The notes beneath the pieces were generated by a model. It had not been told where the DNA came from and searched no databases. It saw only the letters and a list, made by a program, of their open reading frames with translations. The position numbers and the translations under genes were made by a program. From an uncultured Prevotellaceae bacterium (GTDB lineage Bacteria > Bacteroidota > Bacteroidia > Bacteroidales > Bacteroidaceae), in assembly GCA_946413885.1 (NCBI GenBank), contig CAMKMK010000001.1, positions 1 through 47,536 on the forward strand: a stretch of DNA of 47,536 bases. The letters run 5' to 3'. Positions 634 through 47,536 of this stretch are shown in pieces; position 1 is the stretch's first letter; every line of letters starts with the position of its first letter.

Positions 634-809
634 CGAGTGCCATGAGTGCCACGAGTGCCATAACGATTTTGAATGTGTGCCACAACATAGTGACTCAAAT
701 TCTATATTATCTATTATAATAATAAAATTATTATAATAGATAATATAAAGGTAAATATCCCTCTTCCTTGGCACTTTTCATTTTAGCAATGGCACTCGTG
801 GCACTCAGC
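634..809. repeat. Long palindromic element. Arms of tandem 9-mers (GAGTGCCAY) contain a perfect 19-bp inverted repeat and flank a perfect 21-bp-stem AT-only hairpin.
   Basis: TGAGTGCCACGAGTGCCAT at 643-661 is the exact reverse complement of 789-807. TATATTATCTATTATAATAAT at 703-723 is the exact reverse complement of 727-747, with loop AAA. Both symmetry centres fall at position 725. Confidence 0.9.
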
Positions 810-7171: not shown

Positions 7172-10100
7172 TTGCTTGTTTTGGTTCTGTTCAACATTCC
7201 TGCTGTACAGAAATGGATGGCTCGTAAAACAGCCAATATCCTAAGTGAGCAAGTAAATAGTCGAGTGGAGGTTGGGCGTTTGAGGATGGGAGGCTTCAAT
7301 CGTGTTATTTTGGATGATGTTTTCCTGTATGACCAGCAGGATTCACTCATGCTGCAGGCACCTCGTTTAGCAACAAAAATGGAGATCCTTCCTCTATTTG
7401 AGCATAAAATCCGCATCAACAACGCCCAGATTATCGGCGCACAAGTCACTCTTTATCAGCAAAAAGCTGACGAGGACTTCAATTTCAAATACTTTTTGAA
7501 TGCTTTTGCAGGAAAGGATACCACCCAAAAACACCCCATCAACCTGAGAATAGGCAGCATCCTGATGCGAAATTGCGATATCAGATTCAATCGTTGGCAG
7601 GAACCCCTTACGGCTGGCAGATTCAATCCAAATCATTTGAACGTGGAGGATTTCAATCTTACCGCTACCATAAAAGAATTGACACCTGACAGTATCAATG
7701 CAACCATTAAACGATTGGATTTTCGAGAAGCAAGCGGTTTGCAGGTTGACAAAACCCAACTGAAATTGGCTGCCAGTAGAACCAATTTTGATTTGTCAGA
7801 TTTTTTTATCTCTCTCCCACACACTGAAGTTTCAATTCCAAGCTTCATTGCCACTTATTCTGACTTGCCTCAAAAAGGCCTGATGAATGCTTGGTTCAAT
7901 GGACTTAAATGTGAGGGAAAAATAGAGGCTTCTTCTGCCCCCAACGACTTGGCCTCCCTCATTCCTCAATTGACCAACTTTCATGATCCAATAAAACTGG
8001 TTTCAAGCATCAAGGGAATGAACGGATTGATTTCTATGAATGACTTGCACCTACAGGACAGGGATGGGAATCTTGTCTTAGATGGTCGAGTGGATGCACG
8101 AGACATGTTTGGCAAACCTGTCATTGAGGGCTCTGTTACTAATTTGCATACCAGTCCTGGACTCCAGCAGTTCCTTACACGTAACCTCAAAAATGAAGAA
8201 AGAGAAATCAGTCCTTTCCTTTCTCGACTGGGAGCAACTGATACTAAGGGAACCATCTCCTATGCTTCCAATAATCTTGCTGCAAACTTGAACACAGAGA
8301 CTGCTCTGGGGCATGTTCTTGTAGAGGGGAATTTGAGTGATAAAAACAATTTGAATTCTATCATCAAGGTAAATGACTTTGAATTAGGTAAAATATTGTC
8401 AACCAGTGGAAATCCAGAAATAAATAAAGTTTCACTTGAAGGAAATTTGACAGGAAAAATCAAGGGAGAAAGTGATCTCCCAGAATTAATATTCAACAGT
8501 ACCATTCAAGAATTCATCTACAAGAACTATCCCTATCACAATGTAAACCTTACGGCTTCCTGCCAAAATGGAACATACCAAGGAAATATGGTTTGGGAGA
8601 GTTCTAATGGTGCAATCAATGTAGAGGCTTTGTTCAACAACGAGTCTCCCAAAAAGAAAATCCAGTTTGACGCACAATTGGAGGACCTAAATCCCTACTT
8701 GACCAATCTGACAAAGAAATACGAAGGCGAAAAGTTCACGGCTCATCTCTCTGGAAACATCCAAGCCAGAGATCTCGATTACCTTGTGGGAGACGTGTAC
8801 GTCCGTGAACTAACGCTTAACTCATCAGAGAAGGGTATCTGTCGACCTGGCGACTTTCATATCTCGAGCCAGCCAGATAGCACAGAGCAACATGTTAGCA
8901 TAGAAAGCCCTGTTCTACGATTCCAGGCAGATGGCACATTCAAATGGAAGAATATACACAATACTTTCCTCAAAATAACCAATTCCCATCTACCCAGCAT
9001 TTTCAATCGTCCCAACACCAACGAGCGTCTCAACGATGACATCACTTTCAGTTTACGCGTAAAAGACACATCATTGGTGGAACGTTTGACAGGAATCAAC
9101 CTAAGCATTCCCCAAGAAGCCCTCATCGAGGGTCACATGGATGGTGGCATAAATATGATGACCCTTAATGCTGATATTCCTTACCTGAAATATGGCAACG
9201 AACAATTAGAACACATAAATTGGCGTGTCGAAAGCAACAGTTACAGCCTGCAGTCCAGTATGCTTCTACAACGATTGATGAAAGGTGTTCCCTTAGAGAT
9301 AGGTATGGATGTCAATACGGGCCAAGACATCTTGATGTCCCATCTGCGATGGAACAATCATCAGGAACCAGAGCAGTCTGGGGAATTAGATTTAACAGGC
9401 GAATTCTACAAGGATTTGAATGGCAAACAGGCTATCCGTGGATTGCTTAACAAATCCGACATCATTATCAAAGACACCGTTTGGACCGTCCAGCCTGCTA
9501 AAATCAATTACCATGATGGCGTAGTGGATGTGAGGGATATACTCATTGCTCAAGGTGAGCGATACTTTAAGGTTGACGGTCGCGTATCCAAGGAAGAAAA
9601 CGACACCTTAACGGCAGATTTGAATAAAATAAATTTGTCCTATATTTTTGACATCATCAATTTCCATACAGTAGACTTCGCAGGAGATGCCACAGGACGC
9701 ATCTATGCCCGTAATCTGATGAACAAGCCAAAGGCAGATGCCTACATCCATGTCGATGATTTTACTTTCAACGAAGGCGCCATGGGAAGTATGGACGCAC
9801 ACGCGAATTGGGGTGACCAGGAAGGAACCATCCATTTGGATGCACATATAGTAGATTTACCCGTCAATCATCAAACCTCTGTAGTAGGAACCATTACTCC
9901 AGGACATAAACCTGAAAGTGGTTTGGAACTCAACATCAACACTCGTCGCATAAATCTCTATTTCCTGAACAAGTTTACTGATGGAATCTTCACTGATTTC
10001 CAAGGACGAGCCACAGGATGGTGTCGTGTGTTCGGTCAGTTTAAGAACATCAATTTAGAAGGTGACATTCTTGTTAACGAGGCCAGCATGCGAGTGAATG

Positions 10101-20272: not shown

Positions 20273-20288
20273 TTTAATGAGAGAAAAA

Positions 20289-20424
20289 AGACAACGTGTT
20301 GAGTTGGCAGGAAGAACGTGTTGTCTTTGCAAAGTTAACGTGTTGAGTTGGCAGGAAGAACGTGTTGTCTTTGCGGTTTCAACGTGTTGAAATTCTCAAG
20401 TCAACGTGTTGTCTGATTCAAGGG
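20289..20424. repeat. 22-bp phased repeat array, 6 direct units, core AACGTGTTG
   Basis: Cores start at 20293, 20315, 20337, 20359, 20381 and 20403, with exact 22-nt spacing and all in the same orientation. 38 nt at 20293-20330 are repeated identically at 20337-20374. Confidence 0.95.
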
Positions 20425-22366: not shown

Positions 22367-22410
22367 GCAACACGTTCTTACCTATCCCTTTTCATCTTGC
22401 TGGAAAAAAG

Positions 22411-22479: not shown

Positions 22480-25400
22480 TTACTTCACCAGTTGCTTCTT
22501 GCCGTTGATGATGTAGAGACCCTTCTTCAGCTGCTGACGGTTGGCAAACTTCCTACCTGTCAGGTCGTAGATACCAATTGCCTTGGTGTTGGGCACGCTA
22601 CTGATGATGTCAGAGATGCCAGTACCGCCGTTCTTGATATCCTCCATCTGCTCTTCGCTTACCATACGGAAATGACGAACATAAAGGGTGGTCAGTTCAT
22701 CAGGAATGGGATCGAGACGTATCCTGTCACCAGCCTTACCCCAATCGATTTCCAAAGCATCCGTCATGTCGATGAAGATGTTTTTCCACTCGCCAGGTTC
22801 TGTTGCCTCAAAGTCGAACCAGATCTCGTTGCCAGCCACGATGGGAGAGTAGAATACCTCAGCATTGTGGGCGGTCTCAGTCTGATACTGGAAATAGAGA
22901 TAACGTTCGTTGGTCAGGTCGTACTCCAAGGGAGTGAGGTAAGCGTATGGATCAGGCCCAACGGTGGTGATGAAGTAGCTGAAAGGTGCAACATTTGTCC
23001 ACTCCATATTGTGGGCACCTGAAGCCGTCAGCGTCATGTAGCTGGCATAGGTTGCCTTGACCTGAGCTGCCAAAGCGATTGCCTCCTCTGTAGAGATCTC
23101 AGGATAGTCAGGATCTTCATCATAAGCACCCCATACGCGCTCGCTAATTTCGTTGATGGCATCCTTGTCAGCACCCTCGTATTCAGCAATGTTGTACTCG
23201 CCATAAATAGCCTCTACAACATCCAACAGGTTGACGTATGCCTGCTTACCTTCGTAGATTTGCTGGAAGAGGTTACCTATCTGCTGAACCAAAGCGTACT
23301 TCTCTGCCCCTGTAGAGGCGTTGGGGATGGCATTCACAGCATTCTCCAAAGCTACCTTCAAGGAGAGAGGATAGTTGGGGAACTGCTTGTAGGTCTCGTC
23401 GTCCATATAAATGTACACATTGAGCAGATGATCTGCCGTAATGGACATCTCGTTCAAGGTACGGTCGAGAGCCTCGATAGCGGTAGCGGATTCCACATCG
23501 CCCTGATAGTAGAGACGGAAGTCGCCCAGACGTGTCACGTTGGCTCCATCGACACCAGGAGTGCGTACGCCCACGGTCAGGTTACCGTCAGTCACATTCA
23601 CCACGATGCGGTTCTCATACAACCCGTCAGAGAATGCCAAAGCATGTCCCTGGACAAGTGCAGGAGCGTAACCCACGTCGCTTCCATCCTCAAAGAGGAT
23701 CGTGAAGTTTGTCTCGTCGGCATACTCAGCATCCATAGGCACGTAATCCTCGATGATAGTACGCGTGTAGGTCTGAGCCTCGTTGGCATAGACGAAGGAA
23801 GCATAGTTCAGCGAGTTGTTGTCGCCAAAGGGTCGATAGTTAGCCTTGACGGTCAGCTCATAGATACCGTCCTTCATGCCTGTCAGCGTCTGGGAGAGAT
23901 CAACGGCATTGGTCGAACCAGCTATGTTCTTCAGTTCTGAAGCAGGCGTGTCATAGGTGCTGAAGCTGCCAGCATTCGTGTCCCAACCTTCCTTGGCTAG
24001 GCTGAAGTCTGGATTGACGAGCAGACTGGTGATCTCGCTTCCAGGAGTATAGTCTGAAGCGATGGCCTGAGTCAGCAAGCCGTCCAGATAGGTGGTCTCT
24101 TCCTGAATCTCCTCAGTCGTCAGCTGACGGTTCTTGTCGATGTAGGAATATGATCCGTTGGGGAACTTGCCGCCTGGCTCCTCGTCTTCTGTCAAGTAAG
24201 ATTCTACCACCTCGCGACCAGTACCAGCCATATCAGGATTTGCCTCCAGATAAGCCTTTACTTCCTCTACCTTATTCATATAGGCAGCGTAAGCGTCCAT
24301 GCTGGCTTGTGCGACAGCCTTCTTGGCGTAGAGTGCTTCGTAGGCATCGAGGAAGTCAGCCAGGACATTTATCTCGCTCAACGCATTGACATCTGCCTCG
24401 TAATCCTCTTGCAGGGCGGAAGTATAGGGATACTCGCTGCTCCAGTCCAACTCAGCCAGTACCACATCGTCGCGGAAGCTGGTGAAGTTCTCCTCAGTCA
24501 TGGAGGCATAGCTGCCATCAGGGAGCTGATATACGCGAGCGTGCGTCTTATCCCACGTGGGGCAAGTGTCTTCGCCGATATTCTGATACCAGGTGGGGCT
24601 GAGGAAGGTGTTTCCGTTCAGCGTGTAGCAAAGCTCACCACTTGCAGCTATCTCAGAGCAGTCTGCAAAGCAATTGTTCATGGCTGAGGCACCAGCCGCC
24701 AAAGGACCCTCGTACGTTGACCAGCAGTTGTTTAGCGTAGAAGAAGCTGCCTCACCGCTGATACCGCCTATCTGCTCATGTGTGGTAGCCAGAAGGAGGT
24801 CGCCTGCCGTGAAGCAGTTCGTAACGGTGGATACATGCATCTCACCACCCAGCACACCCGTGCGGACGCTTGCATTGCTGACCATCTCAGCATTCACGAT
24901 ACCCAGGTTCTTTACCGTTGCGCTATAGGTGCGGCTAAAGAAACCTACCTCTCTCGTGTCATCGCGCGTCACCTTCAGGTTGTAGATGATGTGGTTCTGA
25001 CCATCGAACACACCAGAGAAAGAGGTGTTGACCATACCTGCCTCGTCAGAGTAGAGGCCGATGGGAGTAAAGTTCTCGACAGGAGTCAAGTCGATATCAT
25101 TATCCAGCTTGGCCTTGACGGAAGTAGAACCTCCGTTGACCATCTCAGCGAACTTCAAGAGTTGCGTGTACCACTGGATGTGATAGTATCCATCAGCATC
25201 CGTCGTCATGAAGCCAGGCATCTCCTGACCGCAATTCACGCAGATACCGTATTCATATACGTGATCAGGAATCACAACCTCATTGGGAGTGTTCGAGTAA
25301 GTGATCTCGCCACCTTCCTTGGCAGAGCCGTCGCAGTTGAACTCACCTTGGGCATAGACTCTTCCGCGAGAGGAATCCAAAGTGGGCAGATTGTCCTCAC

Positions 25401-26682
25401 CAATTGTCTGGAACCATACAATCTCCTTCTGGTCGCCGTTCAGACGGAAGGTTGCCTCGCCACTACGGAAAGCATCGACGGGCAGATCGCTGTAGCAATC
25501 AATCATGTAGGAGGCGTAGGTACCTGTAACAGCACCCTCAGATACGCAATATTCCTCTGTACCAATGCGAACTTTATTGTCGTCAGCAGCATCGCCTATC
25601 AGTCTTCCAGCACGTGGATAAGCCTGAATGTCGTTGCCACACTCCCAGCAGCGGCTTACCGTACCGCCGTAGTTTCCAGCCACCAGGGCAGCCACGATCT
25701 CGTTCGTGTGGATCACGGTACTGTTCGTCACGTAGCAGTTTTCCACGCGGCCCTCCATCAGCTGACCAACCAGGGCAGCAAAGCGTCCGCCGTAAGGCTC
25801 TTTCTCACCAAAGTCAAACGTGTAGTAGTCCACACCCAGGTCGCGAACCGTACCCGTAACCAAGCCGAACACACCGCTTGACCCGTAGAGGGGATTGTAG
25901 GGAGCCGTCAGGTACTTGATGACGTGCTTCTGACCCTCGAAGATACCGGCAAAGCCCAGATTCGACTTGGCAGCACCCGTTGAATAGGAGTCACCATTGT
26001 CTATCACGCCGATGGGGCAATAGTCCGTCACCTCGCTCATGTCCAGGTCAGCCGTCAGACGTGCATTGGCAGTACGGTACATGCCTGAGTTCACGATACG
26101 CGCGAATTCCTGCAGGTCAGCAGGCGTACTGATGATCCAGTAGCCATCCTCGCCCTGCGTCAGGTGAATCTCGCCCACATCCGTCGTATGGCGTTTCTCG
26201 TACTCAGCCTGAGAGATGATCTCAATGTTGCGAACATCAATCTCCAAGCCTGCCTGCTCGCCCGTGTCCATACGCATGTTGTCGTTCTTCTTACCCCAAC
26301 CAAATTTCTGGCGACTGCCGGAAATGTTCACATACTTCACCGTCCAATCCTCAGCCATGGGGAAAGCAAATACCTGCTCACGACCTGCCGCAATGGGAGA
26401 GAAGAAGAACTCTGCATTGCCAATCGTCTGAGGGCATTTGTACTCCATCGTCACCCAAATCTCATCGTCAGTCAGGTCACGAGGCAAACGGCTCATCTGG
26501 ATGTAGGGGTCGCCGTTCAGGCTCACGATGTGGTACTCGTAGTCACCTGTTTGCTCGATGCTCATGCCGTTCTGAGTGGAACGGTTCAAGGTCAGGTAAC
26601 CCAGAGGCTCTGGCCCATCGTCTTGGCCAAAGGCACATACAGCCATTAAAGCTGTCAACAGAAAAAGTAGTTTTCTTTTCAT
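22480..26682 (-). CDS. 1400-aa secreted surface protein with a T9SS C-terminal sorting domain; internal duplicated modules
   Basis: Signal peptide MKRKLLFLLTALMAVCAFGQ. The C-terminus ...GIYDLTGRKFANRQQLKKGLYIINGKKQLVK is typical of Por/T9SS tails. It has two GLUG-like modules (FAGIFEGQKHVI..., FSGVFDGQNHII...) and homologous domains at the N- and C-ends. Confidence 0.85.
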   Translation of the reverse strand: MKRKLLFLLTALMAVCAFGQDDGPEPLGYLTLNRSTQNGMSIEQTGDYEYHIVSLNGDPYIQMSRLPRDLTDDEIWVTMEYKCPQTIGNAEFFFSPIAAGREQVFAFPMAEDWTVKYVNISGSRQKFGWGKKNDNMRMDTGEQAGLEIDVRNIEIISQAEYEKRHTTDVGEIHLTQGEDGYWIISTPADLQEFARIVNSGMYRTANARLTADLDMSEVTDYCPIGVIDNGDSYSTGAAKSNLGFAGIFEGQKHVIKYLTAPYNPLYGSSGVFGLVTGTVRDLGVDYYTFDFGEKEPYGGRFAALVGQLMEGRVENCYVTNSTVIHTNEIVAALVAGNYGGTVSRCWECGNDIQAYPRAGRLIGDAADDNKVRIGTEEYCVSEGAVTGTYASYMIDCYSDLPVDAFRSGEATFRLNGDQKEIVWFQTIGEDNLPTLDSSRGRVYAQGEFNCDGSAKEGGEITYSNTPNEVVIPDHVYEYGICVNCGQEMPGFMTTDADGYYHIQWYTQLLKFAEMVNGGSTSVKAKLDNDIDLTPVENFTPIGLYSDEAGMVNTSFSGVFDGQNHIIYNLKVTRDDTREVGFFSRTYSATVKNLGIVNAEMVSNASVRTGVLGGEMHVSTVTNCFTAGDLLLATTHEQIGGISGEAASSTLNNCWSTYEGPLAAGASAMNNCFADCSEIAASGELCYTLNGNTFLSPTWYQNIGEDTCPTWDKTHARVYQLPDGSYASMTEENFTSFRDDVVLAELDWSSEYPYTSALQEDYEADVNALSEINVLADFLDAYEALYAKKAVAQASMDAYAAYMNKVEEVKAYLEANPDMAGTGREVVESYLTEDEEPGGKFPNGSYSYIDKNRQLTTEEIQEETTYLDGLLTQAIASDYTPGSEITSLLVNPDFSLAKEGWDTNAGSFSTYDTPASELKNIAGSTNAVDLSQTLTGMKDGIYELTVKANYRPFGDNNSLNYASFVYANEAQTYTRTIIEDYVPMDAEYADETNFTILFEDGSDVGYAPALVQGHALAFSDGLYENRIVVNVTDGNLTVGVRTPGVDGANVTRLGDFRLYYQGDVESATAIEALDRTLNEMSITADHLLNVYIYMDDETYKQFPNYPLSLKVALENAVNAIPNASTGAEKYALVQQIGNLFQQIYEGKQAYVNLLDVVEAIYGEYNIAEYEGADKDAINEISERVWGAYDEDPDYPEISTEEAIALAAQVKATYASYMTLTASGAHNMEWTNVAPFSYFITTVGPDPYAYLTPLEYDLTNERYLYFQYQTETAHNAEVFYSPIVAGNEIWFDFEATEPGEWKNIFIDMTDALEIDWGKAGDRIRLDPIPDELTTLYVRHFRMVSEEQMEDIKNGGTGISDIISSVPNTKAIGIYDLTGRKFANRQQLKKGLYIINGKKQLVK

Positions 26683-26784: not shown

Positions 26785-26828
26785 CGTTTCTGCTTTTTTT
26801 TCTAATAAGGTGCGGAAAAAAGAAAAAC

Positions 26829-27053
26829 GTCCCACTGTCCCACTGTCCCATCGTCCCATTAAGGCGTTTTCAATATGCAGAGGGGTATGCTACCTATAGG
26901 TTATTATAGTATATAATAGATTATATACTATAATAAAATTCTAATACTTACATTATGCAACTTTTAATAGGGTTTTCGGGGTGTATTGTAAGCAACGGAA
27001 AGTGAGAAGGTGCTTAATGGGACAGTGGGACGATGGGACAAATGGGACAAACG
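26829..27053. repeat. Long imperfect palindromic element: arms of tandem 8-9-mers (GTCCCAYY / RRTGGGAC) flanking an AT-only hairpin
   Basis: Left arm GTCCCACTGTCCCACTGTCCCATCGTCCCATTAAG (26829-26863) faces right arm CTTAATGGGACAGTGGGACGATGGGACAAATGGGAC (27013-27048). The inner 11 bp are a perfect inverted repeat. The hairpin pairs TTATTATAGTATATAAT (26901-26917) with 26920-26936. Confidence 0.88.
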
Positions 27054-27091: not shown

Positions 27092-27127
27092 TCCGAGTAT
27101 TCCGAGTTTTCCGAGTTTTCCGAACCA
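27092..27127. repeat. 9-bp tandem repeat array: TCCGAGTAT, TCCGAGTTT, TCCGAGTTT, TCCGAACCA
   Basis: Read directly. The unit is the reverse complement of the ACTCGGA-type units at 39-79. The 11-mer GAGTTTTCCGA is shared with 27-37. Confidence 0.85.
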
Positions 27128-27133
27128 TGCCCC

Positions 27134-27229
27134 CAAACCGAAAAGACAACACGTTCTTCTTGCAAACACAACACGTTCTTCCTGCAAAGACAACACGTTC
27201 TTCCTTCGCTCTCGACACGTTGAAACCCG
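27134..27229. repeat. 22-bp phased repeat array, 4 units in reverse orientation (core AACACGTT)
   Basis: Cores start at 27148, 27170, 27192 and 27214 (the last is GACACGTT), with exact 22-nt spacing. The reverse-complement units read AACGTGTTGTCTTTGCAGGAAG, matching the units at 20315 and 129. Confidence 0.93.
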
Positions 27230-44025: not shown

Positions 44026-47000
44026 ATGAAAAACTCATTTATATCAAAGGGCAGTCTGCTCCTAAAGGCTTTAGTATTATGTGGTGTCATTACCACAGCC
44101 CAGGCCGATGACAATCTCTATGTGTACAAGAATGGTGTCATCATGTTCCGCGAGAAAGCTGTCAAAGTGGATAGCGTCGCAATGGAGGAAGGCAAGAGCA
44201 TAGTCACCTTGTATGATGCAGCCAAGAAGGTTCTCTACACAGCCCCTCGCAGTCAAGTGGACAGCATATCCTTCACTACCGACGTTCCACAAGCCGACAT
44301 GTTGGATGTGCGCTTCAATGCTGACGGCACAGCAACCGACATATCTCCAATGCAGATGAAAGTCCAGAAAATAGGGAACACACAAACCGTCTATTACAAC
44401 GAAACATACAAGCGCTATGCCGCCAACTTCGTGAATCCCTGGGCTGGTAATGCATCCGGCTATTATAAAGTTGACTGGGAGAACAACACAAAATTCAAGA
44501 ACATGCTGGCAAACGGACACACGTTGGAGTGTATCATGATGGCCAATTACACACCACCTATTGCAAATGTTGAGGCAAAATGGTTCTCCAGTCATCAGGC
44601 AGGTGGCACAGGATTTCTCATCAGCACCATTAGTGGAAGCCGACAGAACGAGATAACTTTCCTGCCCAATGTGTCCACGAGCGGAAGCAGCACTTGGCGT
44701 TGGGCTACCAGTGGCGTGGTTCCTCAACCTGGCGTTTACTATCATTTGGTGGGTGTATGGAACAAGGCTCTAAAGAAGGCATATATCTACGTTAATGGAG
44801 AACTCAAGAATACTGTAGAGGCTTCTGGTAACTTCGTTCTTCCCCAGAGTGGAAGCGGATGGTTTGGTATTGGTTGCGATCCAAGTGGTTCCAATGGTAA
44901 TACAGCTTGGAATGGCGATGTCGTCATGGCTCGTATCTACGACTCTCCACTCAATGCTGAACAAGTCAGCAAACTGTGGAATCAAGTCCGCATTCTGGAA
45001 GAGAACGCTCCCAAACCTATGGTCAGCAATGTAACTCTCTCGAGCGGATATCCTGTAGCCCCTGGCACGAACTTCAAGATTGGAGCAACAGGGTTCCAAG
45101 AGGGTGACCAGATTGTGCTGCAACAAGTCAACTCGTCGTACAGCATCACCCTTCCTTTGGAGAAAGTGACTGAGACAGGTGGTACCATCATTATCCCTGA
45201 GGAACTTACCAGCGATCAATACAGCATCATCTTGAAGCGTGGCGACCAGACTCAACGGTTGGGCACTTGCACATTTATGGTAACCTCCAGCATGCCTCAT
45301 GGCATGAAGGTCATTGCACATCGCGGGTACTGGAACAAGGCTGGTGCCGCCCAGAACAGCCGCGCATCTCTGCAATATGCCTTCGATGTACAATGTTATG
45401 GTTCAGAGACAGACGTCTGGATCACACAGGACGGCCACGTGATGGCAAATCATGATGCAACCTTCAATGGCGTCAGTATCCAGAACTCAACCTATGAAAC
45501 TTGCAAGAACCTCACGCTCAGCAATGGCGAGAAGATGCCTGAGTTGAAAGACTTCCTGGAAATGCTCGTTAAGGAAGACTCCTGTAAGCTCATCATTGAG
45601 ATCAAGACTCACAGCGATGAAGCGCGTGGTAAGATTTGTTGTGACAGTTGCATTACTCAGGTTCATCGCATGGGACTTCAGGATAAGGTGGAGTACATCG
45701 CCTTCAGTCTCAACCTATGCCGAGAAATTGTCAGATTGGACCCCAATGCTCACGTAGCTTACCTGAATGGCGACAAAGACCCACAAACCCTTTACGATTA
45801 CGGCATCATGGGACTTGACTACACGGCCAACAACTATCGAAGAAATCCTTCATGGATTCCTAAAGCCAGAGAACTGGGCATGACAACCAACGTTTGGACC
45901 ATCGACAGCAAGGATGAGATGATTGAAATGTCAAATCTCGACATCGACTACATCACCACAAATAATCCTGAAACAGCCAAAGAGGTTTATGCTTATTACC
46001 AAGCTAATTCTCATCACGAAAATGGAGAAAATGATGAAGACAAGCCTATTGCCGACCTTTTGGATGTTTGTTTCAATTCCGACGGAACGGCAATTGACTT
46101 GTCTCCCATGAAAATGAAGATAGAAAAATGTGGAAACGCGCAAAATGTATATTACAATGAAATTTTCAAGTGCTATGCTGCCAACTTCACGACCCCTTGG
46201 TCTTCAAAACCTTCTGACTATTACAAGATTAATTTTGAGGACAACAAAGCTTTCCGCGATGCCTTGGCCGATGGTCACAGTTTGGAGGTTTTGGCGATGC
46301 CTGATTATGAAGGGAACCTTCCTGACGTGGAGGCCAAGCCATTTTCTGCAATGCAAGCCGGTGGCACAGGTTTCCTAATTAACAGATTGTCCAATGGCCC
46401 ACAAAATTCGTTTACTTTCCTGCCCAATGTCTCTACTACTGGTTCTAGTACATGGCGATGGACTACCAGTAACGTATTTCCCCAATCTGGTTTCTATTAC
46501 CATGTGATTGGCGTTTATAATAAGGAAGAGGCCAAGTCCTACATTTATGTAAATGGAGAACTCTGCAACACTGTGGATTCTCCTGGTGACTTCCGCTTTG
46601 CCAATGCTGGATGCAACTGGTTCTGTGTAGGCGGTGATGCAAGTGCCAACGGTGCAGAGGCAGGTTGGAGAGGCGATGTCATCATTGCCCGTGTCTATGA
46701 CAAGCCTCTCACAGAAGAAGAGGTAAAGAAATTATGGAAACCAGTCCGCATTCTGGAAGAGAACGCTCCCAAGCCTATGGTCAGCAATGTAACTCTCTCG
46801 AGTGGATATCCTGTAGCCCCTGGCACGAACTTCAAGATTGGAGCAACAGGGTTCCAAGAGGGTGACCAGATTGTGCTGCAACAAGTCAACTCGTCGAACA
46901 GCATCACCCTTCCTTTGGAGAATGTGACTGAGACAGGTGGCACCATCACCATCCCTGAGGAACTTACCAGCAATCAATATGTCATCATCCTGAAGCGTGG

Positions 47001-47536
47001 TGACCAGACTCAACGGTTGGGCACTTGCACGTTTATGGTAACCTCAAGCATGCCTCATGGCATGAAGGTCATTGCGCATCGCGGATACTGGAACAAGGCT
47101 GGTGCCGCCCAGAACAGCCGCGCGTCTCTGCAGTATGCCTTCGATGTACAATGCTATGGTTCAGAGACAGACGTCTGGATCACGCAGGACGGCCATGTGA
47201 TGGCAAATCATGATGCAACCTTCAATGGTGTCAGTATCCAGAACTCAACCTATGATACTTGCAAGAATCTCACGCTCAGCAATGGCGAGAAGATGCCTGA
47301 ATTGAAAGACTTCCTGGAAATGCTCGCTAAGGAAGACTCCTGCAAGCTCATCATTGAAATCAAGACTCATAGCGATGAGACGCGTGGTAAGATTTGCTGC
47401 GACAGTTGCGTTACTCAGGTTCATCGCATGGGACTTCAGGATAAGGTGGAATACATCGCCTTCAATCTCAACCTATGCCGCGAAATTGTCAGACTGGATC
47501 CTGATGCCCACGTTGCTTACCTGAATGGCGACAAAG
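44026..47536 (+). CDS. Partial (3'-truncated by the window edge) large secreted protein: signal peptide, small N-domain, then 2 x [LamG-like lectin, Ig-like, glycerophosphodiester phosphodiesterase]
   Basis: This ORF is not on the supplied track. Hand translation of the frame with positions = 1 mod 3 shows no stop from 44018 to 47536. Possible starts are ATG 44014 (ATGA overlap with the upstream stop) or ATG 44026 (MKNSFISKGSLLLKALVLCGVITTAQA). GDPD motifs are IAHRGYW...QNS...GSETDVWITQDGHVMANHD. The LamG pattern is YIYVNGEL...W.GDV..ARIYD..L. Confidence 0.88.
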   Translation, partial: MKNSFISKGSLLLKALVLCGVITTAQADDNLYVYKNGVIMFREKAVKVDSVAMEEGKSIVTLYDAAKKVLYTAPRSQVDSISFTTDVPQADMLDVRFNADGTATDISPMQMKVQKIGNTQTVYYNETYKRYAANFVNPWAGNASGYYKVDWENNTKFKNMLANGHTLECIMMANYTPPIANVEAKWFSSHQAGGTGFLISTISGSRQNEITFLPNVSTSGSSTWRWATSGVVPQPGVYYHLVGVWNKALKKAYIYVNGELKNTVEASGNFVLPQSGSGWFGIGCDPSGSNGNTAWNGDVVMARIYDSPLNAEQVSKLWNQVRILEENAPKPMVSNVTLSSGYPVAPGTNFKIGATGFQEGDQIVLQQVNSSYSITLPLEKVTETGGTIIIPEELTSDQYSIILKRGDQTQRLGTCTFMVTSSMPHGMKVIAHRGYWNKAGAAQNSRASLQYAFDVQCYGSETDVWITQDGHVMANHDATFNGVSIQNSTYETCKNLTLSNGEKMPELKDFLEMLVKEDSCKLIIEIKTHSDEARGKICCDSCITQVHRMGLQDKVEYIAFSLNLCREIVRLDPNAHVAYLNGDKDPQTLYDYGIMGLDYTANNYRRNPSWIPKARELGMTTNVWTIDSKDEMIEMSNLDIDYITTNNPETAKEVYAYYQANSHHENGENDEDKPIADLLDVCFNSDGTAIDLSPMKMKIEKCGNAQNVYYNEIFKCYAANFTTPWSSKPSDYYKINFEDNKAFRDALADGHSLEVLAMPDYEGNLPDVEAKPFSAMQAGGTGFLINRLSNGPQNSFTFLPNVSTTGSSTWRWTTSNVFPQSGFYYHVIGVYNKEEAKSYIYVNGELCNTVDSPGDFRFANAGCNWFCVGGDASANGAEAGWRGDVIIARVYDKPLTEEEVKKLWKPVRILEENAPKPMVSNVTLSSGYPVAPGTNFKIGATGFQEGDQIVLQQVNSSNSITLPLENVTETGGTITIPEELTSNQYVIILKRGDQTQRLGTCTFMVTSSMPHGMKVIAHRGYWNKAGAAQNSRASLQYAFDVQCYGSETDVWITQDGHVMANHDATFNGVSIQNSTYDTCKNLTLSNGEKMPELKDFLEMLAKEDSCKLIIEIKTHSDETRGKICCDSCVTQVHRMGLQDKVEYIAFNLNLCREIVRLDPDAHVAYLNGDK
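44986..45778 (+). repeat. Copy 1 of a 793-nt near-identical intragenic direct repeat (Ig-like plus N-terminal two-thirds of GDPD)
   Basis: It aligns without gaps to 46744-47536 at an offset of exactly 1758 nt (586 codons). I hand-counted about 43 mismatches, mostly at third codon positions. Confidence 0.9.
46744..47536 (+). repeat. Copy 2 of the 793-nt near-identical intragenic direct repeat (runs to the window edge)
   Basis: Same alignment as for 44986-45778. The similarity may continue beyond the window. Confidence 0.9.

Follow-up and report, generated by a model that had tools for sequence, protein, structure and literature searches.

The replication origins of staphylococcal pathogenicity islands (SaPIs) lie directly downstream of rep and carry 6-12 iterons of five or six nucleotides, with at least two iterons per side placed in opposite orientation about an AT-rich centre; a self-loading helicase of the SF3 or MCM-like kind binds the iterons through its C-terminal winged helix, and one hexamer loads on each side (PMC9371898). 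Here we describe two elements of comparable plan, element A (635-807) and element B (26829-27049), in a 47.5-kb stretch of chromosome from an uncultured Prevotellaceae bacterium (contig CAMKMK010000001.1, positions 1 to 47,536; hereafter the window), and we put forward, with a probability of roughly one half, that both are orphan replication-origin-like modules of the Pri-Rep type, in which iterons, an unwinding element and further iterons follow one another and the initiator would be provided in trans. To our knowledge, origins composed of iterons and an AT-rich centre are known only beside initiator genes, on phages, satellites and plasmids. As a kind, the iteron/AT-rich origin is already known; in the literature we found no description of stand-alone, positionally conserved chromosomal iteron/AT origins with exchanged iteron classes.

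The likeness of A and B to the Pri-Rep origins of SaPIs and phage-inducible chromosomal islands (PICIs) lies in the number of units (four plus three in A, four plus four in B), their arrangement as opposed groups, the AT-rich centre and the use of an element-specific iteron. Unlike the SaPI origins, which sit on a mobile island 3′ of rep, A and B lie in conserved housekeeping DNA, where rep, pri and int genes are absent from all 47.5 kb; their centre is a long perfect AT-only palindrome, and their host comes from another phylum.

Other described systems share part of this organization. A lactococcal phage origin placed in trans in the host hinders the incoming phage, an effect termed phage-encoded resistance (PER; PMC8965321). 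PER constitutes a precedent for the effect of an orphan origin, but it is engineered, plasmid-borne and copy-number-dependent, unlike the chromosomal A and B. We know of no natural chromosomal equivalent of PER. The short tandemly repeated repetitive (STRR) sequences of cyanobacteria consist of tandem 7-nt units that form opposed arrays and intergenic hairpins, as in hupS-hupL (PMC2670836). STRR sequences reuse a few fixed heptamers genome-wide, with no AT-palindrome core and no link to phage initiators, whereas no such reuse was found here, units of the A/B type being 7-11 nt long and different in every element. The repetitive extragenic palindromes (REPs) of enterobacteria are one conserved palindrome mobilised by RAYT transposases. 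REPs and bacterial interspersed mosaic elements (BIMEs) resemble the loci analysed here in being intergenic mosaics of several short motifs, the window holding AACGTGTT 22-mers and ACTCRGA 9-mers beside A and B; in contrast to them, each element here has its own unit and the window contains no RAYT gene.

Methods

Related sequences were fetched through two proteins of the window. NqrF yielded 80 related loci totaling 1.36 Mb, with 0.76 Mb of unrelated metagenome DNA as control, and the 138-aa product of a gene neighbouring element B yielded two further species (78% and 71% amino-acid identity). Exact-protein look-ups gave no match for NqrF and NqrD, and returned short contigs only for NqrE. 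Viral contigs from IMG/VR were scanned for direct arrays of three units, leaving opposed partners, centres and neighbouring genes outside the query. Opposed arrays were called when partner arrays lay 70-130 nt apart round an AT-rich or alternating-CG centre.

Results

Element A is organized around a single axis. Its outer arms contain a perfect 19-bp inverted repeat, in which 643-661 (TGAGTGCCACGAGTGCCAT) is the exact reverse complement of 789-807 at 19 of 19 positions, and both are built from GAGTGCCAY 9-mers with the core GTGCCA: three tandem units on the plus strand at 635-661 (GAGTGCCAT / GAGTGCCAC / GAGTGCCAT), forming an iteron-like array, and two inverted units on the minus strand at 789-807 (ATGGCACTC / GTGGCACTC). 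The centre is an AT-only palindrome (703-747) whose 21-bp arms (703-723 and 727-747) are 100% complementary, with the loop AAA and C711:G739 as the sole C:G pair, and which we propose as a DNA-unwinding or cruciform centre. The axes of the arms and of the central hairpin coincide at 725, and a 41-nt spacer lies on either side (662-702 on the left, 748-788 on the right). An earlier note on this DNA had read the inverted repeat, the unit counts, the hairpin arms, the shared axis and the 41-nt segments from the letters, and each is borne out. It had not noticed an additional inner pair with its axis at 725.5, GTGCCA at 677-682 on the plus strand, 15 nt inside the outer array, and TGGCAC at 769-774, which is GTGCCA on the minus strand. 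The two inner units pair in predicted folds and are the sole complementarity between the spacers, and the motif count of element A is therefore four on the left and three on the right, with GTGCCA starting at 637, 646, 655 and 677 on the plus strand and at 769, 790 and 799 on the minus strand. The right spacer further carries, on the plus strand, a C-rich motif (ATATCCCTCT) at 755-764. The stretch 662-788 has 74.8% A+T and the core 703-747 has 95.6%, compared with a window average of 53.2%. The loop of the central hairpin differs in length between strains, with an additional G at 725 in X1, and GAGTGCCA occurs a single time in the window outside element A.

The same plan recurs at 26829-27053, as the earlier note had proposed, in what we delimit as element B (26829-27049), built on GTCCCA 8-mers that conform to the related motif RTGG(G/C)AC. 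Its left array (26829-26859, plus strand) comprises four GTCCCAYY units with an 8-nt period and is followed by a 41-nt spacer (26860-26900) bearing the C-rich motif GCATACCCCTCTGC on the minus strand at 26878-26891, by a perfect AT palindrome (26901-26936) with 17-bp arms (26901-26917 and 26920-26936) and a 2-nt loop, by a long variable spacer (26937-27016) and by a right array (27017-27049, minus strand) of four inverted RTGGGACR units, one of them at 9-nt spacing. Elements A and B thus have in common a C-rich motif, on the opposite strand in B, and the 41-nt spacer length. A+T content reaches 68.8% between the arrays of B and 91.7% in its core. Among five strains, the arrays and the hairpin stem of B are invariant, the loop is variable and single-nucleotide polymorphisms concentrate in the long spacer.

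The central hairpins of A and B are the only perfect hairpins of at least 12 bp in the window. Fold z-scores were -10.4 and -11.3 as RNA and -9.6 as DNA, none of 200 shuffles being equally stable, and no inverted pair of tandem arrays arose in 1.4 Mb of Markov-shuffled DNA. The proposal of the earlier note that element A could extrude a cruciform or make a long hairpin is supported, in that the structure exists and can adopt either form. A structured non-coding RNA, which that note had listed among its candidates, finds no such support: the window matches no Rfam family at the gathering score and contains no tRNA, Rfam searches in E-value mode returned only sub-threshold plant miRNA-precursor matches (22 bits vs a threshold of 200), and fold energies show no consistent strand preference (sense is better in 5 elements and antisense in 6), which lends no support to an RNA made from one strand. 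In one sheep metatranscriptome the organism is barely represented.

A perfect 19-bp inverted repeat round a 127-bp segment, of a size typical of Bacteroidales invertons, might instead delimit an invertible switch. We regard the recombinase-driven inversion suggested in the earlier note as extremely improbable, given that a single interior orientation is seen in the contigs spanning A (X1, X3 and X5), in five assemblies spanning B and in three species, and that the window encodes no recombinase; the centre of element A is moreover itself palindromic, so that inversion would change little. Four further candidates were rejected: a sigma-54 promoter, evoked by TGGCAC, for its unfit -24/-12 spacing; a protelomerase site, in view of the loop in the palindrome and its imperfect flanks; an origin of the arrays in transposon footprints, because these would be direct and not inverted repeats; and telomerase-like synthesis from a single template, because several different units occur in one genome.

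The units of A and B, and that of the B orthologues considered below, recur in viral contigs as opposed arrays. GTCCCAYY (8 nt, the unit of element B) was found in 10 contigs, with opposed arrays in 5 of them by the strict rule and in 7 by eye; GTAACAnA (8 nt, the unit of the B orthologues) in 32 contigs, 13 with opposed arrays; and GTGCCAYNN (9 nt, the unit of element A) in at least 120 contigs, many of them coding, with 10 opposed arrays among the matches listed. As a control, ACTCRGAnn, which forms direct-only arrays in the window, matched 64 contigs, most of which look coding, and gave no opposed arrays. A DNA primase or primase-helicase gene identified with PHROGs lies just upstream in 13 of the 19 opposed-array contigs scanned (L226, L258, L247, L249, L230, L231, L227, L254, L268, L229, L374, L365 and L331), the families represented being phrog_8841, 1829, 256/1313, 35358/21086, 2249, 6088 and 1156. 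The distance from primase stop codon to array is mostly within a few hundred bases, extending to 0.7-1.5 kb in L227 and L229. The other six contigs have a Dda-like helicase (L272), a terminase (L312) or, in four cases, no primase or helicase match among the scanned neighbours. Two cultured phages display the same arrangement: in Roseburia phage Jekyll (LR596902.1), GTAAC arrays flank a 95-nt AT-rich stretch 16 nt after an MCM-like helicase gene, and in Ruminococcus phage phiRg507T2_2 (MT980836.1), GTAAC arrays lie downstream of primase and helicase genes. The iteron classes of A, B and the orthologues of B (GTGCCA/9, GTCCCA/8 and GTAAC/8) are thus initiator-linked in 13 viral contigs and two cultured phages.

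Elements A and B accordingly resemble the iteron/AT-rich regions of phages (Jekyll, phiRg507T2_2, L226, L230, L247, L258 and L374, among others), which carry no annotation, in unit cores, periods, opposed arrays and an AT-rich or structure-prone centre, and differ from them in lacking an adjoining initiator gene, in being centred on a long perfect palindrome and in having interiors that cannot be aligned with theirs. A match of GCATACCCC..CATATT to L247 was rejected as homology (z-score 1.1), and BLAST searches with A and B as queries found no match among plasmids or cultured phages. The hosts of the phages with such regions are mostly Firmicutes or unknown. In four phage contigs of high G+C content (L254, L268, L229 and L231; 63-67% G+C), the centre is an alternating CG or CACG tract and not AT-rich, from which it follows that a structure-prone centre, and not A+T alone, may be the shared requirement.

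The two further species carry orthologues of element B at the matching intergenic site, each with four plus four units of 8 nt and a perfect AT-only palindrome, with arms of 23 and 14 bp. The C-rich motif lies, as in element B, on the side nearer a neighbouring gene for a 1400-aa protein, and all three elements stand upstream of a conserved TTTG...TAnnTTTG promoter. The unit, in turn, has been exchanged: it is GTAAC in both orthologues vs GTCCCA in the window, both of them phage iteron classes. Over 27 arm pairs in three species, 88.9% of cells are paired and 9 pairs have changed on both sides, a result that none of 500 shuffles reaches, while slid controls are 31-44% paired. Given the small number of sequences (three) and the repetition of the changes from unit to unit, we take this as evidence of concerted maintenance of complementarity and not of independent covariation events.

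This conservation bears on whether the elements are relic origins, now functionless, of phages or satellites that have decayed or been excised. Such relics would leave behind an anatomy of the phage type with no initiator gene next to it, and the non-coding stretches involved (about 1 kb for A and 0.67 kb for B) are unusual for a bacterial chromosome. Against this reading, which we deem unlikely, the palindromes are perfect and the arms intact at one site in three species amid intergenic DNA that cannot be aligned among them, the arrays are invariant among strains while the spacer varies, and the flanking genes are housekeeping genes in conserved synteny, among which no other phage remnant occurs.

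Location upstream of a promoter raises the alternative that the arrays are operators or enhancers for a host transcription factor acting on the neighbouring gene, which for B would be the 1400-aa gene. Element B lies 45-145 nt upstream of the Bacteroidetes-type promoter in all three species, and its asymmetric interior keeps its orientation relative to that gene. We nevertheless hold this to be very unlikely, inasmuch as B and the promoter are separated by a distance that varies threefold, the rest of the window shows no enrichment of the motifs, the differing units of A, B and the orthologues would call for several transcription factors, and A has no downstream gene in equivalent orientation, since nqrF is convergent and terminated at 1008-1040. 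The 1400-aa open reading frame itself (ORF; 22480-26682, minus strand) has no match in Pfam, NCBIfam, PADLOC or PHROGs; its length and position are kept in three species, always downstream of element B and the conserved promoter.

The elements belong to a recurring kind, as the earlier note had anticipated. Ten additional cases in which short-period arrays form an inverted pair occur in the 80 NqrF loci, every one with a 7-11-nt unit of its own, whereas the unrelated metagenome DNA holds one weak case and shuffled DNA none. The closest reference genome (NqrF 98% identical) has an element at the matching place downstream of nqrF, with ATTCCAGTT units and an AT-rich centre. Profile searches with nhmmer (A/B core; L001/L007 core) identified no further members in the 80 loci, and the spacer motif AGAGGGRTATNNTACCT produced at least 120 chance matches in metagenome contigs, with none of the element family among the matches listed.

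Read depth reveals a modular copy-number pattern. In four metagenomes the arms of element A are single copy, while its core and right spacer (734-778) are multi-copy, at about 5-25x local depth, and a paralogue of the core shares 86% identity over 703-789 but is flanked by TGCAACTT arrays. Element B presents the reverse pattern, its left arm and the following 26 nt (26824-26886) being multi-copy at about 10x and its hairpin single copy, and one contig joins the arms of B without the core. Modules present in several contexts, the different flanking arrays of the A-core paralogue, the coreless B contig and an element in locus L042 where relatives have 15-25 nt would all be in keeping with a MITE-like, non-autonomous foldback element whose terminal inverted repeats are the tandem arrays, a candidate named in the earlier note. 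This explanation does not hold up well and appears improbable to us: no target-site duplication is found at A, B, L001, L007 or L042 (save for a doubtful TTAA at L042 only), the flanks of B continue the palindrome instead of a duplication, the arms of A are single copy, the window contains no transposase, and B is retained at an orthologous site in three species with its geometry conserved.

Some relatives carry opposed arrays of their own. The L042 element (8420-8494) is a hairpin of opposed AGGTTTT-unit arrays with a 13-nt loop and no AT centre; it fills the nqrE-nqrF spacer, which measures merely 15-25 nt in five relatives, and represents a recent insertion or expansion inside the operon. 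At L052:125-463, about 25 tandem copies of the 11-mer TTAATCTAACG face 2 inverted copies, and three sites in L006 (14531-14582, 16083-16130 and 17753-17804), near three paralogous genes, each show TTATGGCAGG x3 and one inverted unit. Simple array hairpins lacking an AT centre may be a separate hairpin-type phenomenon.

They also sustain the main competing explanation, a sequence-independent foldback repeat similar to STRR or BIME, in which only arm complementarity would matter, the arms would grow by slippage and be homogenised by template switching or conversion, and the resulting cruciform or RNA hairpin would serve as terminator, insulator or transcript stabiliser. The arms are perfectly or near-perfectly complementary, linkers included; in the B orthologues, changes in one arm are matched by compensating ones in the other; 1.4 Mb of Prevotellaceae loci hold twelve opposed-array elements whose units are unrelated, compared with the one instance in 0.76 Mb of unrelated DNA; some of these elements fit closely into the gaps between genes that are transcribed together; B is bordered by an A-tract and a T-tract in the manner of a bidirectional terminator; and STRR arrays do form intergenic hairpins (PMC2670836). 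What such a repeat leaves unexplained is the agreement of A, B and the orthologues, in both unit and period, with arrays that phages carry next to primase-helicase genes, the inner unit that shares the outer-unit sequence (the flanks of a contig hint at the same in a paralogue) and the retention of four plus four units across species, and the absence of strand bias in fold energy speaks against it as well. On balance, the simple hairpins of relatives keep the foldback explanation alive, as a possibility that we rate as low but not negligible.

The window is ordinary housekeeping chromosome of a rumen or gut Prevotellaceae, with nqrFEDCBA, tamB, riboflavin synthase, a MacAB-TolC type pump, a porin, ruvC and his genes, and no transposase, reverse transcriptase or recombinase gene was found in it. 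Element A lies about 280 nt past the 3′ end of the convergent nqrF, beyond its terminator, and element B lies between the 138-aa and the 1400-aa genes. The statement in the earlier note that no plausible coding sequence covers element A is upheld: ORF 179-736, which reads HECHECHECH through the repeats, has no Pfam match and shows several 1-nt indels across 200-480 in strain variants, and its coding reading is therefore rejected.

Several observations concern the immediate surroundings of the elements. A third, weaker opposed-array element adjoins A, with TGGGGTCAA x3 at 837-865 and a TTGACCCAT partner at 898-914, and metagenome X6 has one additional 9-nt unit at 852 within it. In strains whose flank 483-1300 is near-identical, the non-coding segment 163-482 differs by about 13% and has several 1-nt indels, which suggests a recombined or fast-evolving segment. 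Direct arrays of 22-bp units with the quasi-palindromic core TCAACGTGTTGA occur at 85-167, 20287-20420 and 27142-27215, with a single site at 22368, and in relatives at L214:17254-17310 and at L217:17462-17516 and 1176-1231. They keep their positions, beside A, beside B and between convergent genes, in three species; strains differ in the number of copies, and their metagenome depth is 25-200x local depth. The 22-bp phasing recalls plasmid iterons or the operator array of a dimeric regulator, and the variant tested had no match in viral contigs. Direct arrays of ACTCRGAnn 9-mers at 22-82 and 27092-27123 adjoin A and B; one unit has been gained or lost between strains, and the arrays are multi-copy in metagenomes. 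At the far end of the window, one long ORF, which continues beyond the last position, contains a direct duplication: 45291-45778 and 47049-47536, about 1.76 kb apart, agree at 459 of 488 bases. The duplicated segment has the appearance of a glycerophosphodiester-phosphodiesterase-like repeated domain.

Discussion

The case for orphan Pri-Rep-type modules is carried by the anatomy of the two elements, the identity of their units and periods with those of initiator-linked phage arrays, their orphan status and the orthologous retention of B with a concerted unit swap. Both elements have at least two short iterons with a 5-6 nt core per side in opposition, and both have an AT-rich centre between the iteron groups. 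This layout, opposed short iterons round an AT-rich unwinding region, was absent from the candidates of the earlier note, whose account of structure, recurrence and recurring kind stands and whose proposed mechanisms (MITE, recombinase and non-coding RNA) are not supported. In A and B, short units with a 6-nt core at 8-9-nt spacing (GTGCCA and GTCCCA, respectively) form opposed arrays that flank a stretch of 69-75% A+T. On the model of the SaPI origins, the winged-helix domain of a self-loading SF3 or MCM-like helicase would bind each array, one hexamer would load per side and the AT palindrome would melt. As no such protein is encoded in the window, the initiator would be supplied in trans, probably by a phage or satellite. 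For the host, titration of the initiator, with the element as decoy, or local phage-triggered replication are candidate consequences.

Several findings weigh against this interpretation. No primase, helicase, Rep or integrase gene was found in the window with Pfam, PHROGs and NCBIfam, and neither element lies immediately 3′ of a rep or pri-rep gene; the linkage to a rep gene having been tested and found lacking, A and B are not full members of the Pri-Rep family. Long perfect AT palindromes are atypical of the phage origins seen, and two modules in 47 kb is a high density. The interiors of A and B gave no significant local alignment with phage origins, so the likeness is one of architecture, unit and period; the units themselves were the query in the viral comparison, so that only the partner arrays in opposition, their AT-rich centres and the genes alongside count as independent evidence. 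The viral matches span 30-67% G+C and may not infect this host. Finally, simple opposed arrays with no AT-rich centre exist in related genomes, some of them inside operons, and resemble plain hairpins.

A more specific proposal, which we offer as speculative and rather doubtful, is that orphan origins of phage type are retained by the host at fixed intergenic sites, where they would serve as decoys or tripwires for the helicase of phages or satellites. The elements would titrate, or be fired by, the self-loading helicase of an infecting phage or satellite, in what would be a natural counterpart of PER, and their iterons would be swapped over evolution, tracking the initiator specificities of the rumen virome. 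Candidate examples of such swaps are the change from GTCCCA to GTAAC at site B and that from GAGTGCCAY to ATTCCAGTT downstream of nqrF.

Elements of the A/B type break short-read assemblies at predictable places, and matches between units and initiators could help to assign uncultured phages to their hosts. Should A and B be bound by no initiator, they would still represent a family of palindromes, hitherto undescribed and actively maintained, in a dominant rumen and gut lineage. If one does bind them, they would be sites in cis that let phages or satellites act on the host chromosome, or that let the host act on phages or satellites, and gene-free decoy defence and phage-triggered local replication would become directly testable roles.

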